Shown here in pieces: positions 6,541-23,823 of a stretch of DNA of 40,482 bases. Positions within the stretch are counted from its first letter, which is position 1; each line of letters begins with the position of its first letter. The notes under the pieces are model-generated. The model did not search any database. It saw only the letters and a list, made by a program, of their open reading frames with translations, and was not told the DNA's origin. Source of the DNA: Escherichia phage vB_EcoP-22664UKE3-2. Position numbers and translations under genes: made by a program. The DNA is taken from sequence record MZ234011.1; one strand, 5' to 3'.

Positions 6541-6586
6541 TTAGACTCAAGGTCATTACTATATGTAGTGGCCTTTATGGTTAACA
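6541..6586 (+). promoter_or_regulatory. Conserved RNA hairpin, family 2 (AGACTCAAGGTCAT...GTGGCCTTTATGGTTAAC); putative RNase III processing site before gene 18.5
   Basis: One of three copies of the same motif (also about 16553 and 23779); stem AAGGUCA/UGGCCUU requires a G-U pair so works only as RNA; position corresponds to T7 R18.5. Confidence 0.4.
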
Positions 6587-6638
6587 CTAACTAGTGGAGG
6601 AGACTCTACGTGAAATCCGATAAACCGGGAGGGCAACT

Positions 6639-7082
6639 ATGCTCGAATTTTTAAAGAGAGCGGCTCCGTGGTTACTTGCAGCAGTGATGTTTGCTGGTGG
6701 CTACCACACCGCTAACAATAAGTGGGAGGCTAAGGTAAATGCAGAATACACCTCGAATCTTAAGGCATCGGAGGATACAAGGCTTGCTGTCCAAGCTGAA
6801 GTCAACAAAGTGTCCAAACGGTTTCAGGACGAAATGTCCTCGCTGGAAGGCAGCACTGACAGGATTATTGCTGACCTTCAGTCTGACAATAAGCGGCTGC
6901 GCATCCGAGTCAAACCTACGAGTGGAACCACGCAAAGTGACGGTCGATGCGTCATTGATGGTTACGCCGAACTTGACGAACGAGATGCTAAACGTCTTAT
7001 CTCCATCGGACTGAAAGGGGACGCTTGGATTAAAGCACTACAGGATACTATCCGCAAACTTCAACAAGACAAGGAGAAATGA
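6639..7082 (+). CDS. Rz-like i-spanin (T7 gp18.5-like)
   Basis: MLEFLKRAAPWLLAAVMFAGGYH... with RIIADLQSDNKRLRIRVKPT and DERDAKRLISIGLKGDAWIKALQDTIRKLQ matching T7 gp18.5; N-terminal TM segment. Confidence 0.85.
   Translation: MLEFLKRAAPWLLAAVMFAGGYHTANNKWEAKVNAEYTSNLKASEDTRLAVQAEVNKVSKRFQDEMSSLEGSTDRIIADLQSDNKRLRIRVKPTSGTTQSDGRCVIDGYAELDERDAKRLISIGLKGDAWIKALQDTIRKLQQDKEK
6739..7014 (+). CDS. Rz1-like o-spanin lipoprotein embedded in +1 frame of Rz (T7 gp18.7-like)
   Basis: Embedded ORF with lipobox LTISGCAS and C-terminus VDASLMVTPNLTNEMLNVLS resembling T7 gp18.7; exact start uncertain. Confidence 0.7.
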   Translation: MQNTPRILRHRRIQGLLSKLKSTKCPNGFRTKCPRWKAALTGLLLTFSLTISGCASESNLRVEPRKVTVDASLMVTPNLTNEMLNVLSPSD

Positions 7083-7519
7083 TGCTCAGTGATTCGTATT
7101 TCTATGATGAGTCCAGTAAGTCTGGCCTGAAGTCCCTGCGTTCTGGTAAGGATGTGGGGTGTGTGGGAAACCACGGGTATTATCAGGTAGGAACTCGACG
7201 TCATGGACTCCTGCTGGCCCATAGAGTCGTCTGGGAGCTAACCAACGGTCCTATACCAGAAGGGATGGAGATTGACCATATCGACCGCTGCCGGACTAAC
7301 AACAGGCTGGACAACCTCCGGCTAGTTACTTCAAGCGAGAACTCCTGCAACACCTCAGGACATTCTGACTCAAAGACTGGAGTTAAGAACATATCGTTCC
7401 ATCAGAATGGCTACGCTATCGAGGTCATGCGTAAGGGGGTCCGTATGCGAACAACACGTCCTACTTTAGAGGAGGCTATCTCTGTCCGGGACCTAATGCT
7501 GGAGGGACTCTATGTCTAA
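7079..7519 (+). CDS. HNH homing endonuclease
   Basis: [56 protein letters not shown] is a typical HNH motif; sits between Rz and large terminase where T7 has no gene; overlaps terminase start. Confidence 0.75.
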
Positions 7520-9278
7520 GAAAACACCTGCTGAAAGACAGGCTGAAATGACCCAAAGGATGAGGGACGACTTCGTGTTCTTCATCTTCGTTCTCTGGAA
7601 AGCGCTGAGCCTTCCGGTTCCAACCAGATGTCAGATAGATATGTGTAAGAAGCTGGCTGCTGGCGATAACCGACGCTTCATCCTTCAGGCGTTCCGAGGT
7701 ATTGGCAAATCGTTTCTGACCTGTGGTTTCGTGGTCTGGAAGCTATGGAACAACCCAGACTTGAAGTTCATGATTGTGTCGGCCTCAAAGGAACGAGCCG
7801 ATGCAAACTCCATCTTTATCAAGCGAATCATCGACCTCATGCCTCAGCTTCAGGAACTCAAACCTAAGCAGGGACAGCGAGATGCTGTTATCAGCTTCGA
7901 CGTTGGGCCAGCCAAGCCTGACCACTCACCTTCTGTTAAGTCAGTTGGTATCACTGGTCAGTTGACTGGTAGTCGTGCTGACATACTGATTGCCGATGAC
8001 GTGGAGGTTCCGAACAACTCAGCGACTCAGGCTGCACGAGACCGTCTGTCAGAGCTTGTGAAAGAGTTTGACGCTATCCTGAAGCCGGGAGGTACGATCA
8101 TCTATCTGGGTACTCCTCAGAACGAGATGACCCTGTACCGTGAGCTGGAAGGTCGTGGGTACATCACTACTATCTGGCCCGCTCGTTATCCACGCGATAA
8201 GAAGGACTGGCAGTCTTACGGCGACCGTCTTGCACCGATGCTTCAGGCAGAGCTTGAAGAGGACCCTGAGGCCTTCTACTGGCGTCCGACCGATGAAGTT
8301 CGATTCGACGATACTGACCTGAAGGAACGTGAGCTGTCCTACGGTAAAGCTGGCTTCGCTCTACAGTTCATGCTTAACCCTAACCTGAGTGATGCCGAGA
8401 AGTATCCTCTGAAGCTCCGTGACCTTATCGTAGCAGACTTGGACCCAGCGTCCAGCCCAATGGTCTACCAATGGTTACCGAACCCTCAGAACAAGCGTGA
8501 GGACGTTCCTAACGTTGGACTCATGGGTGACTCGTACCACACGTATCAGACTGTAGGTTCTGCCTTCAGTTCGTACACCCAGAAGATTCTGGTCATAGAC
8601 CCTAGTGGTCGTGGTAAGGATGAAACTGGCTATGCGGTACTATACCAGCTCAACGGCTACATCTTCGCTATGGAAGTTGGTGGCATGCGTGGTGGTTATG
8701 AAGACTCTACGCTGGAAGCCTTGGCTAAGATTGGTCGTAAGTGGAGGGTCAACGAATACGTCATTGAGGGTAACTTCGGTGATGGTATGTACCTTGAGCT
8801 ATTCAAGCCTGTAGCGGCCCGTATCCATCCTGCGGCTGTAACTGAAGTGAAGAGTAAGGGTCAGAAAGAACTACGCATCTGTGACGTTCTGGAGCCTATC
8901 ATGGGGTCTCACAGACTTATCGTTAACGCTGCTGCTATCGTCCAAGACTACCAGACAGCCTCTGACAAGGATGGTGTTCGTAATCCTATCTACTCTCTAT
9001 TCTATCAGATGACACGTATCTCTCGTGAGCGTGGAGCCTTGGCACACGATGACCGACTTGATGCGCTGGCTATCGGTGTACAGTTCTTCGTTGAGTCGAT
9101 GGCTAAGGATGCCAACAAAGGCGAACGTGAAGTCACTGAGGAATGGCTGGAGGAACAGATGGAGAACCCACGGAAAGGCTTCGAGTCCATCCACACTGAG
9201 TTCTGGGACAATGGGGTCCGGGTAACTCACGATACGGACGACGAGCTTGGACTAGGGTCATACGTTACGTTCCACTAG
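7512..9278 (+). CDS. Terminase large subunit (T7 gp19-like)
   Basis: 588 aa, same size and position as T7 gp19; Walker A-like GIGKSF motif near the N-terminus. Confidence 0.95.
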
Positions 9279-9287
9279 CTGAATGAA

Positions 9288-21806: not shown

Positions 21807-21885
21807 GTCTCCATAGCTCAAACGGTAGAGCGGCGGGTCGTGATGGCCTATTGCGATTAGGGTTCGAATCCCCGTGGAGACGCCA
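21807..21885 (+). tRNA. tRNA-like element (degenerate; possible pseudo-tRNA or tRNA-like structure)
   Basis: Perfect 7-bp acceptor stem GTCTCCA/TGGAGAC, D-arm GCTC-AAACGGTA-GAGC, canonical T-loop TTCGAAT in GGTTCGAATCC, discriminator G then CCA; I could not fold a clean anticodon stem and the middle is about 3 nt long. Confidence 0.35.
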
Positions 21886-21899
21886 CTAAGGAGTGACCA

Positions 21900-23600
21900 A
21901 TGTCATACGATGACCAAGACGACGAGAGTGTCTTTCTGTATCACACCCAGTGTCCAGACTGTGGGTCCTCGGATGCCAATGGTGTTTACTCAGATGGACA
22001 CATGTACTGCTTCGCCTGTGACCCTTCAGTCGCATGGAAGAAAGGAGACATGGAGTTGACCGAGGGATACACACCCTCAGGAGGTAGAAAGCAAGTGAGC
22101 AATCTGTTAACGTTCGGTGAGAACGCTGGACGATATGTCCCACTACCAGCCCGTAGTCTCAGCATGGAGATATGCAAGAAGTACAGCTACTGGGTGGGTA
22201 ACATGGGTGGCAAGATGGTTCAGGTCGCTGATTATTACGACAGGTCCGGGACCAAGGTAGGGCAGAAAGTCCGAGACGCTGAGAAGAACTTCACGGCTAT
22301 AGGTAGCGTCAAGTCTGACATGCTGTTCGGCTCTCAGCTCTGGAACGGTGGTAAGAAGATAGTCATCACCGAGGGCGAGATAGACGCTCTGTCTGTGGCT
22401 CAGGTGCAGGACGGGAAGTATCCTGTGGTCTCGCTCCCGTTAGGCTCCAAGTCTGCGAAGAAAGCGATGGCTGCGAACCTTGAGTATCTCGACCAGTTCG
22501 AAGAGATAATCTTGATGTTCGACATGGATGAACCGGGTCGTCAGGCCATTGAGGATGCAGCTCCAGTATTACCAGCAGGTCGGGTTAAGGTAGCATTCAT
22601 CAACGGGTACAAAGACGCCAACGCTGCACTTCAGGCCAAGGACTTCAAGGCCATCACTGATGCAATCTGGAACGCTAAACCTTTCGTCCCGGCTGGCGTG
22701 GTATCAGCGGCAAGTCTGAAGGACCGCACACGAGAGGCAATGCTTAAGGCAGAGACTGAAGGTCTCATGTTCTCGTCATGCACAACACTCAACGCGATGA
22801 CCCTCGGTGCGCGAGCTGGTGAGCTTGTCATGGTGACTTCGGGGTCAGGCATGGGTAAGTCTACCTTCGTCCGTCAGCTCCTCTTAGAGTGGGGCAGAGG
22901 TGGTAAGCGTGTTGGTATGGCTATGCTTGAAGAGGCTGTAGAGGAAACAGTTCAGGACCTTATGGGTCTGGACAATAACGTCCGTCTACGCCAGAGCAAG
23001 GAACTGAAGCAAGCAATCTTAGAGGACGGACGGTTCGACGAATGGTATGACAAGCTGTTCGGAGACGATAAGTTCCACCTGTACGATTCATTCGCCGAGT
23101 CAGAGGAAGACACCTTGTTCGCTAAGTTGTCCTACATGGTGGATGGTCTCGACTGCGACGTAATACTGCTTGACCACATCTCAATCGTTGTGTCTGGAAT
23201 GGAAGATAACTCAGATGAACGTAAGACCATTGACCGCATCATGACTCGTCTCAAGAAGTTTGCGAAGACGAAGGGTGTTGTTGTCGTGGTTATATGTCAC
23301 CTAAAGAACCCAGAGAAAGGTAAATCGCATGAAGAAGGACGACCTGTTAGTATCACTGATTTGCGTGGAAGTGGTGCTCTGCGTCAGCTATCTGACACTA
23401 TTATCGCACTGGAGCGCAACCAGCAAGGGGATACTCCTAATATTGTCCAGCTCCGTTTGCTTAAGTGCCGCTTTACTGGTGACACGGGAGTTGCGGGACA
23501 CCTTGAGTACAACAAGACGACCGGGTGGCTTGAACCGATTAGCTTCACTGGCAGCAGCGGAGAAGAGGATAGCGGCTCGTGGGAAGATACCGACTTCTAA
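21900..23600 (+). CDS. DNA primase/helicase (T7 gp4-like)
   Basis: N-terminal zinc ribbon [23 protein letters not shown], primase region, Walker [10 protein letters not shown] and helicase motifs, C-terminal acidic tail ending DTDF, as in T7 gp4. Confidence 0.97.
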
Positions 23601-23776
23601 GGAGGAGTACATTGCTAAGAAAACTTAAAGCTCGCTACCATCGGTTCATGTACAAATGGTGGAGCGATGAAGCAACCTGCCTGTCGAACATTCTGGGAGA
23701 CCAGCGGTTCAACTCTGAGGCATGGAAGAAAGCTAACCGGAAGTTCATGCATCACTTCTTGCGTACAGACTTCTAG
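23579..23776 (+). CDS. Hypothetical small protein (start uncertain; overlaps gene 4 end)
   Basis: Six-frame ORF; an internal ATG near 23648 is an alternative start. Confidence 0.3.
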
Positions 23777-23778
23777 GT

Positions 23779-23823
23779 CTAGACTCAAGGTCATTCATAG
23801 CGAGTGGCCTTTATGATTAGACT
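23779..23823 (+). promoter_or_regulatory. Conserved RNA hairpin, family 2; putative RNase III site upstream of DNA polymerase
   Basis: AGACTCAAGGTCAT...GTGGCCTTTATGATTAG; third copy of the motif. Confidence 0.4.

Follow-up and report, generated by a model that had tools for sequence, protein, structure and literature searches.

Three intercistronic hairpins in a K1F-like Escherichia phage genome as very likely orthologues of the T7 and T3 RNase III sites R18.5, R1.1 and R4.7

Three hairpins in the genome of Escherichia phage vB_EcoP-22664UKE3-2 are very likely orthologues of R18.5, R1.1 and R4.7 of phages T7 and T3, that is, T7-type processing signals for host RNase III. The elements are not new, and are ordinary, already known RNase III sites of the T7 group. 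The window analysed was the whole 40,482-nt sequence record MZ234011.1, a permuted Kayfunavirus genome (K1F-like, T7 family) with T7 gene order, 99.9% identical to phage vB_EcoP-101120B2. The direct evidence for the three sites comprises their sequence, fold, strand specificity, covariation, positional and sequence orthology to sites annotated or characterised elsewhere, and a structural family shared with hairpins of the early region. By analogy with T7, RNase III would cleave at the three sites at the positions predicted in Table 1, with an effect on mRNA stability.

A pattern search of the whole window with the full pattern AGACTCAAGGTCAT-N9-11-GTGGCCTTYATGRTTA gave exactly three matches, all on the + strand (Table 1), and exact copies of the 14-mer alone were confined to the same three sites. 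The hairpin core AAGGTCAT..TGGCCTT was observed three times, against none expected from 100 dinucleotide shuffles. These results confirmed the three-copy conserved hairpin described in an earlier note on this DNA, which had the sites right (6541, 16553 and 23779) with the starts 2 nt too low, and which gave a spacer of 10-12 nt that did not agree with the measured lengths. The gene contexts it named, before 18.5, before 1.1 and before the DNA polymerase gene, were borne out by the ORF positions. Its term "operon boundaries" was imprecise: a phage promoter abuts site 2 only, and sites 1 and 3 lie between cistrons within long polycistronic transcripts.

Table 1. Window coordinates of the motif copies, the three sites (orthology very likely), the early-region hairpins and the promoter at site 2; bit scores are from the covariance model
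Feature	Coordinates	Strand	Details
Motif copy 1	6543-6583	+	spacer 11 nt
Motif copy 2	16555-16595	+	spacer 11 nt
Motif copy 3	23781-23819	+	spacer 9 nt
Site 1, R18.5 orthologue	6535..6594	+	gene 18/gene 18.5 gap; 66.6 bits; starts at gene 18 stop codon (6535-6537; gene 18 ORF 6274..6537); 100 nt before gene 18.5 (6639..7082)
Site 1 lower stem	6536-6544 / 6581-6589
Site 1 upper stem	6549-6559 / 6565-6575
Site 1 internal loop	6545-6548; 6576-6580		5' ACUC; 3' UAUGG
Site 1 predicted cut	~6578/6579		single, in 3' loop, modelled on T7 R1.1
Site 2, R1.1 orthologue	16547..16606	+	before gene 1.1 homologue (16629..16808); 66.1 bits
Site 2 lower stem	16548-16556 / 16593-16601
Site 2 upper stem	16561-16572 / 16576-16587
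Site 2 internal loop	16557-16560; 16588-16592		5' ACUC; 3' CAUGA
Site 2 predicted cut	~16590/16591
Site 3, T3/T7 R4.7 orthologue	23773..23830	+	immediately upstream of DNA polymerase gene (gene 5; 23841..26012); 65.6 bits
Site 3 lower stem	23774-23782 / 23817-23825
Site 3 upper stem	23787-23798 / 23802-23811
Site 3 internal loop	23783-23786; 23812-23816		5' ACUC; 3' UAUGA
Site 3 predicted cut	~23814/23815
Early hairpin	10662..10726	+	before ORF 10731..10985; 26.8 bits, E = 3e-4, filters off; -23.2 kcal/mol
Early hairpin	10985..11043	+	before ORF 11059..11337; 40.0 bits; -23.3 kcal/mol
Early hairpin	11334..11392	+	before ocr (gene 0.3) homologue 11418..11924; 45.4 bits; -24.5 kcal/mol
Early hairpin	12159..12223	+	before ORF 12237..12464; 22.1 bits, E = 0.005; -18.2 kcal/mol
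Early hairpin	12524..12582	+	33.2 bits; -22.9 kcal/mol
Phage RNA polymerase promoter AACTATCACTATAGG	16537..16551	+	abuts site 2

Near-matches to the 14-mer with one or two mismatches were seen at 13694(+), 17680(-), 6871(-) and 29025(-). All four fell within coding sequences, among them those of the RNA polymerase, the ligase and 18.5, and had no covariance-model match; the fold at 13694(+) was insignificant (z = +0.86) and 17680(-) had no counterpart of the 3' arm. We treated the near-matches as chance or compositional, although four exceeds the ~0.4 predicted by shuffles.

At all three sites the lower stem has 9 bp and the upper stem 10-12 bp, and the internal loop between them is asymmetric (4/5 nt). 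Minimum free energies were -20 to -23 kcal/mol and z = -2.6 to -3.6 (site 1 with flanks, -23.2 kcal/mol, z = -2.7; site 2, -20.2 kcal/mol, z = -3.6; site 3, -21.4 kcal/mol, z = -2.6). The upper stem AAGGUCAU / GUGGCCUU held two U·G pairs at every site, and the proximal-box pairs (AAGG/CCUU) were identical to those of T7 R1.1. Folding of the + strand RNA gave -19.4 to -20.2 kcal/mol, compared with -10.0 to -16.1 kcal/mol for the complementary strand, an advantage of 4-9 kcal/mol for the + strand. The core of site 2 was close to that of T7 R1.1, ACUCAAGGUCAU...GUGGCCUU(U/C)AUGAUU, and the R18.5-specific 3' loop UAUGG was common to site 1, K1F, T3 (where it is annotated) and T7 R18.5.

Covariance model R1 was trained on the three window sites and seven T7 RNase III sites, with T3 and K1F sequences left out. 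On T3 the model recovered 8 of the 10 annotated RNase III sites with no extra match at E<0.01, and it also recovered T7 R6.5 and three K1F orthologues; the three window sites scored between 65.6 and 66.6 bits. Among related phages it gave 144 matches in 75 DNA-polymerase loci and 24 matches in 80 terminase loci, every one on the sense strand (168/168). The site upstream of the polymerase gene was present in 21 of 22 Kayfunavirus-like loci and in 31 of 43 T7/T3-like loci.

Pairing was maintained in these relatives. In alignment A2, where fitting to the covariance-model structure somewhat inflates the pairing counts, 93.3% of cells were paired and double changes occurred at 15 of 19 pairs; none of 500 shuffled controls matched the observed covariation, and slid controls were 23-54% paired. 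A structure-blind MAFFT alignment of 12 orthologues agreed, with 95.9% paired, 0/500 shuffles as good and a covariation score of 0.45 vs 0.18. Alignments A1 and A5 had 20 invariant columns over 12 orthologous sites from four phages, and the conserved core CUCAAGGUC...GGCCUUYAUGR was common to the window sites and the T7/T3 sites. Sequence conservation in the upper stem means that most of the covariation support derives from the lower stem and the two pairs beside the apical loop. The covariation analysis across related phages that the earlier note had suggested showed stem pairing kept by compensatory substitution, and its claim of RNA-level conservation of a stem with G-U pairs stood: the G·U pairs, the asymmetry between strands and the covariation all agreed with it.

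The same data bear on whether the elements might instead act as DNA, as recombination linkers at gene-module boundaries or as sites for DNA-binding proteins. Blocks of 15-16 nt were identical at the three module junctions and common to T7, T3 and K1F, which would offer possible recombination homology. However, the strand bias of the model matches was absolute, on the opposite strand, which folds more weakly, A·C mismatches replace the G·U pairs, and the lower-stem changes preserve pairing and not sequence. A possible by-role in recombination would leave the strand bias, the G·U pairs and the compensatory changes unexplained, and we regard a DNA-level element as very improbable. Intrinsic terminators or attenuators acting on host or phage RNA polymerase were considered as well, the hairpins being stable, GC-containing and intergenic. 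This explanation is extremely improbable: the hairpins are followed by AACACUAACUAG, AACCCUAAAUAA and AGACUAAAGCGG, each lacking a U-tract, and no promoter intervenes between the hairpins and the essential genes 18.5/19 and 5 downstream of them. None of the three hairpins was picked up by a terminator scan.

The reading as RNase III processing signals is based on comparison with T7, T3 and K1F. The R1.1 RNA is the standard E. coli RNase III substrate, and the T7-group signals were described in 1983 and have served as a model substrate since. The T7 cleavage coordinates, such as 5887 for R1.1, are said to have been given by Dunn and Studier in 1983. T7 carries the motif in the gene 1/1.1 gap (ACTCAAGGTCATTCGCAAGAGTGGCCTTTATGATT), before 18.5 and before 4.7, and its copies fold alike. 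Since RNase III sites are missing from the listed features of the T7 records NC_001604 and V01146, motif, fold and literature served to check their positions in T7.

The window sites and those of T7 are at the same positions (gene 1/1.1, upstream of gene 5, and 18/18.5), with the same two-helix hairpin and 4/5-nt asymmetric internal loop as in T7 R1.1 (PMC6121014). The core ACUCAAGGUCAU...GUGGCCUUUAUGAUU is near-identical, and both phages have the promoter-then-site order at R1.1 and the UAUGG loop of R18.5. In contrast, the lower-stem sequences of the window sites diverge from T7 by compensatory changes, their apical loops are 2-4 nt longer, and gene 4.7 is absent here, so that gene 5 directly follows the R4.7 equivalent, an arrangement also found in T3. 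Cleavage is demonstrated in T7 and predicted for the window sites. The T3 RefSeq record (NC_003298) annotates R1.1, R4.7 and R18.5 as "RNase III recognition site" at the matching junctions, with R4.7 at 12970-13018, directly before the T3 DNA polymerase gene at 13043. These three T3 sites, unused in model building, scored 53-62 bits. T3 differs in genus (Teetrevirus, not Kayfunavirus), in its shorter apical loops and in its lower-stem sequences. K1F, the type Kayfunavirus, has hairpins at 36446-36505, 12853-12910 and 5566-5625, in matching positions and nearly identical in sequence, each with 1-2 differences; with its early sites it has the same two-tier set. The three hairpins are unannotated in its RefSeq record. 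A search for literature on K1F plus RNase III found reviews only. A processing or stability role linked to RNase III is the right idea; the earlier note put forward such a role and named RNase III in its proposed check.

Rightward transcription of the phage genes would give long polycistronic RNAs, in which each element would fold into a hairpin of ~20 bp with the 4-nt/5-nt internal loop separating a variable lower stem from a conserved upper stem. E. coli RNase III would bind this quasi-continuous double helix, and we propose that, because of the internal loop, its cut would be restricted to one strand on the 3' side of the loop (UAU^GA in T7 R1.1). With an internal loop present, RNase III cleaves a single phosphodiester, and the 3' hairpins that remain are protective (PMC1540722). 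The upstream message would then keep a stable 3' hairpin that may shield it from 3'-5' exonucleases, and the downstream message (18.5, 1.1 or DNA polymerase) would start 25-60 nt before the Shine-Dalgarno sequence. T7 is able to grow in RNase III-deficient hosts (PMC6938266).

Five early-region hairpins (Table 1) showed the lower stem, 4-5 nt internal loop and upper stem of the three sites. The hairpin at 10662..10726 has the early subtype sequence AGUGAUUA-ACUA-CAGGG...CCCUG-ACUGA-UAGUCACU, in register with the three sites, and that at 12524..12582 reads GAGUGAUAG-ACGA-GAGGCCGUC...GGUGGCCUC-AAAGA-UUAUCACUU. The hairpin at 11334..11392 is the positional equivalent of R0.3, with a K1F counterpart at 1030-1088 before K1F gene 0.3. 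The three sites had previously been called a second family, distinct in class from the early hairpins, and this distinction is unsupported because the same covariance model also finds all five. The T7 set mixes both flavours, with CAGG..CCUG in R1, which resembles the early sites of the window, and AAGG..CCUU in R0.3, R0.5, R1.1, R4.7 and R18.5. Like the T7 set, the three sites and the five early hairpins form a single class with two sequence subtypes.

The alternative is a separate element class, served by a different factor or forming exonuclease barriers without cutting. The three copies are indeed far closer to each other (65.6-66.6 bits) than the early hairpins are to them (22-45 bits), the loop and proximal-stem sequences differ (ACUC/AAGG..CCUU/YAUGR vs ACUA/CAGG..CCUG/ACUGA), and K1F maintains an identical two-tier split. 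However, both groups have one architecture and align in register, a model without any early sequence still detected the five early hairpins, and the experimentally defined T7 RNase III set spans both flavours. Site 2 (R1.1) falls within the "early region" of T7 (PMC6121014), so the split is not one of early versus late. We consider a separate class very improbable and retain one class with two subtypes, which in Kayfunaviruses consist of three near-identical AAGGUCAU/GUGGCCUU sites (before 1.1, 5 and 18.5) and five CAGG..CCUG sites (early leader). It is conceivable, though unlikely, that these subtypes reflect functional tuning and not drift, with differences in cut efficiency or outcome setting relative mRNA lifetimes; the subtypes might then differ, for example, in binding without cleavage or in 3'-end stability.

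Recognition of the three sites gives a function to three intergenic gaps and is of value mainly for annotation; the corrected picture is of a genome without two unrelated hairpin classes, which will not surprise specialists. An Rfam scan of the whole window at the gathering threshold returned a tRNA match only, and the hairpins are covered by no curated family. As Rfam has no family for such sites, model R1 can be used for annotation across enterobacterial Studiervirinae. In the stretch from the promoter at 13216 to gene 1, a search for an R1-type site turned up only a weak ACUCAAGGUCU...AGACC remnant whose fold was insignificant (z = +0.57), and no R6.5-type site was found at the promoter at 27496. 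The promoter consensus occurred in 11 copies in the window, all on the + strand, against ~1 expected, and K1F has the same 11. A start from the promoter at site 2 falls inside the 5' arm of the lower stem, and the same overlap of promoter and site is seen for phi1.1A/R1.1 in T7 and phi1.1/R1.1 in T3. The 38-codon "hypothetical protein" ORF at 16480..16596, which the annotation of the closest GenBank relative places on top of site 2 and the adjoining promoter, is probably spurious.

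Exact copies of the 14-mer AGACTCAAGGTCAT lie on the + strand at three positions in the window (6543, 16555 and 23781). Extending the search to the full pattern AGACTCAAGGTCAT-N-GTGGCCTTYATGRTTA gave these three matches and no others, with spacers of 11, 11 and 9 nt, and the hairpin core AAGGTCAT-N-TGGCCTT occurred three times compared with no occurrence in 100 shuffles. An earlier note had placed the motif starts 2 nt too low and given a slightly inaccurate spacer range, but its description was otherwise accurate. The window is a complete, circularly permuted genome from a K1F-like member of the genus Kayfunavirus (T7 family), and its genes follow the order of T7. 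The 3-kb segment that was searched (16000-19000) showed 99.9% identity to Escherichia phage vB_EcoP-101120B2.

Coordinates of the hairpins and neighbouring features
Feature	Record	Coordinates	Setting
Site 1	window	6535-6594 (+)	begins at stop codon of gene 18 (6274..6537); upstream of gene 18.5 (6639..7082)
Site 2	window	16547-16606 (+)	directly 3' of phage promoter; upstream of gene 1.1 homologue (16629..16808)
Site 3	window	23773-23830 (+)	ends ~10 nt upstream of DNA polymerase gene (23841..26012)
Promoter adjoining site 2	window	16537-16551 (+)	
Five early hairpins	window	10662-10726, 10985-11043, 11334-11392, 12159-12223, 12524-12582	each before an early ORF
T3 R1.1	T3 reference record	6003-6053	before gene 1.1; overlapped by promoter phi1.1
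T3 R4.7	T3 reference record	12970-13018	directly before DNA polymerase gene
T3 R18.5	T3 reference record	35038-35088	overlaps gene 18 end
38-codon GTG ORF	window	16480-16596 (+)	overlaps phi1.1-type promoter and most of R1.1 hairpin
R3.8-like hairpin	window	21755-21781 (+)	just 3' of degenerate promoter 21743
tRNA-like gene	window	21807-21885 (+)	between R3.8-like hairpin and primase/helicase gene
R13-like hairpin	window	36059-36106 (+)	encloses promoter 36080
Perfect-consensus promoter	window	13216-13230 (+)	74 nt upstream of phage RNA polymerase gene (13304..15985)

Each of the three sites folded into a lower stem of 9 bp, a 4-nt 5' loop (ACUC), an upper stem of 10-12 bp that includes two U·G pairs (AAGGUCAU.../...GUGGCCUU), and a 5-nt 3' loop (UAUGG, CAUGA or UAUGA) that leads into the 3' strand of the lower stem. 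The minimum free energies were -20 to -23 kcal/mol (z -2.6 to -3.6), and the fold of the complementary strand was 4-9 kcal/mol poorer. Covariation was counted over 100 distinct match sequences in an alignment fitted to the covariance model described below. Bases were paired in 93.3% of cells, 15 of 19 pairs showed changes on both sides, and none of 500 shuffles reached the observed values; sliding the partners as a control lowered pairing to 23-54%. Because this alignment had been fitted to the model, the count was repeated on a structure-blind MAFFT alignment of 12 orthologues, which showed 95.9% pairing and a covariation score of 0.45 versus 0.18, again with 0/500 shuffles as good. Most of the variation fell beside the apical loop and in the lower stem. 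In the proximal part of the upper stem the sequence itself was kept, including one U·G pair in 95/100 sequences, as expected of an enzyme recognition helix.

The covariation across related phages, the strand-specific fold and the U·G pairs bore out the claim of the earlier note that conservation lies at the RNA level, and the reading of the hairpins as a DNA-level element was contradicted by specific test. The same is true of an intrinsic terminator: no U-tract follows any of the three hairpins, and a terminator scan found nothing there. The phage promoter AACTATCACTATAGG was present in eleven copies in the window, + strand throughout, and only the copy next to site 2 adjoins one of the three sites. 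Sites 1 and 3 therefore lie inside polycistronic units, and not at the operon boundaries where the earlier note had placed them.

In T7, the gap separating genes 1 and 1.1 (ACTCAAGGTCATTCGCAAGAGTGGCCTTTATGATT) and the regions ahead of genes 4.7 and 18.5 showed the same motif and fold; we take these positions to be the RNase III sites R1.1, R4.7 and R18.5 (Dunn & Studier, 1983). The T3 reference record names stem-loops at the same three junctions as 'RNase III recognition site'. When the three sites were aligned across four phages (the window, K1F, T3 and T7), 20 columns were invariant. The four R18.5 sites had in common a UAUGG 3' loop that was absent from the other sites, which argues for site-by-site orthology.

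We trained a covariance model (R1) on the three window sites and seven T7 sites, with no T3 sequences. Of the ten RNase III sites annotated in T3, the model recovered eight, with nothing beyond annotated sites at E<0.01; it also recovered T7 R6.5 and the three K1F orthologues. There were 144 matches across 75 loci found via the DNA polymerase protein and 24 across 80 loci found via terminase, all on the sense strand. A site lay ≤700 nt upstream of the polymerase gene in 21/22 Kayfunavirus-like and 31/43 T7/T3-like loci and in 0/7 distant loci; matches were absent from loci with 37-39% DNA polymerase identity or ≤60% terminase identity.

The earlier note had set the three hairpins apart as a second family, distinct from an early-region family that presumably corresponds to five hairpins of the early region. 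This separation was contradicted by specific test, since model R1 with filters off also detected these five hairpins (22-45 bits), and they share the layout of lower stem, 4-nt loop, upper stem and 5-nt loop (AGUGAUUA-ACUA-CAGGUCGUU...GCGGCCUG-ACUGA-UAGUCACU). T7 R1, a member of the same processed set, has the same CAGG..CCUG flavour. The early hairpins are thus a sequence subtype and not a different class. R1.1 of T7 lies inside the early transcription unit (PMC6121014).

The analysis established the sequence and fold of the three elements, their strand specificity and covariation, and their orthology to RNase III sites that are annotated or characterised in other phages. From these we conclude, with high confidence, that the elements are host RNase III processing sites of the T7 group, and we infer cleavage itself. 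The interpretation in the earlier note is supported in part: a processing role is the right idea, and a separate class is not supported. Host RNase III would cut in the 3' loop, at about 6578/79, 16590/91 and 23814/15; the 3' hairpin would then shield the upstream mRNA, and the downstream cistron would be released. Internal loops of this kind limit cleavage to one phosphodiester and yield protective 3' hairpins (PMC1540722), and in T7 polycistronic RNAs are processed at ten RNase cleavage sites (PMC6938266). The elements are real and functional-looking, and already well known as T7-group RNase III sites; the analysis is of value for annotation, corrects the two-class reading and flags an ORF call over site 2. 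The closest relative in GenBank (MZ234023, 16317..16433) labels this GTG ORF 'hypothetical protein'; the ORF is probably a spurious gene call.

Near-copies of AGACTCAAGGTCAT with 1-2 mismatches were seen at 13694(+), 17680(-), 6871(-) and 29025(-), all within coding sequence. They showed no hairpin where checked, and model R1 matched none of them. Dinucleotide shuffles predict ~0.4 such copies, against the four seen. The copy at 17680 (1 mismatch) lies antisense within the ligase gene and is improbable by itself; a bias in composition (GACT and AAGG-rich words) may cause the excess.

Two simple hairpins outside the coverage of model R1 resemble the other T7/T3 RNase III site type and showed significant folds (z = -2.9 and -3.2). 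The first, AGGGAUGAGACC-ACG-GGUCUUGUCCCU, resembles T7 R3.8; the second, AAGGGCCUAUAG...CUAUAGGCCCUU, resembles T7/T3 R13, which overlaps phi13. The tRNA-like gene was called by ARAGORN as tRNA-Thr (anticodon CGU; 3' end GCCA) and scored 36.7 bits with the Rfam tRNA model against a gathering score of 29. It was absent in K1F, T7 and T3 and had no match among 5,426 E. coli genomes. Of 34 phage records, from Kayfunavirus-type phages of Escherichia, Enterobacter, Salmonella and others, nearly all contained the same 93 nt at 95-100% identity, under varying labels (tRNA-Thr, tRNA-OTHER, pseudo or none).

Downstream (3') of the perfect-consensus promoter, a decayed 'ACUCAAGGUCU' remnant showed no significant fold. 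K1F has an equivalent promoter before its RNA polymerase gene (2478-2492), whereas in T7 and T3 only an E. coli promoter (C) is annotated at this position. The phage promoter would let the polymerase gene be transcribed by its own product.
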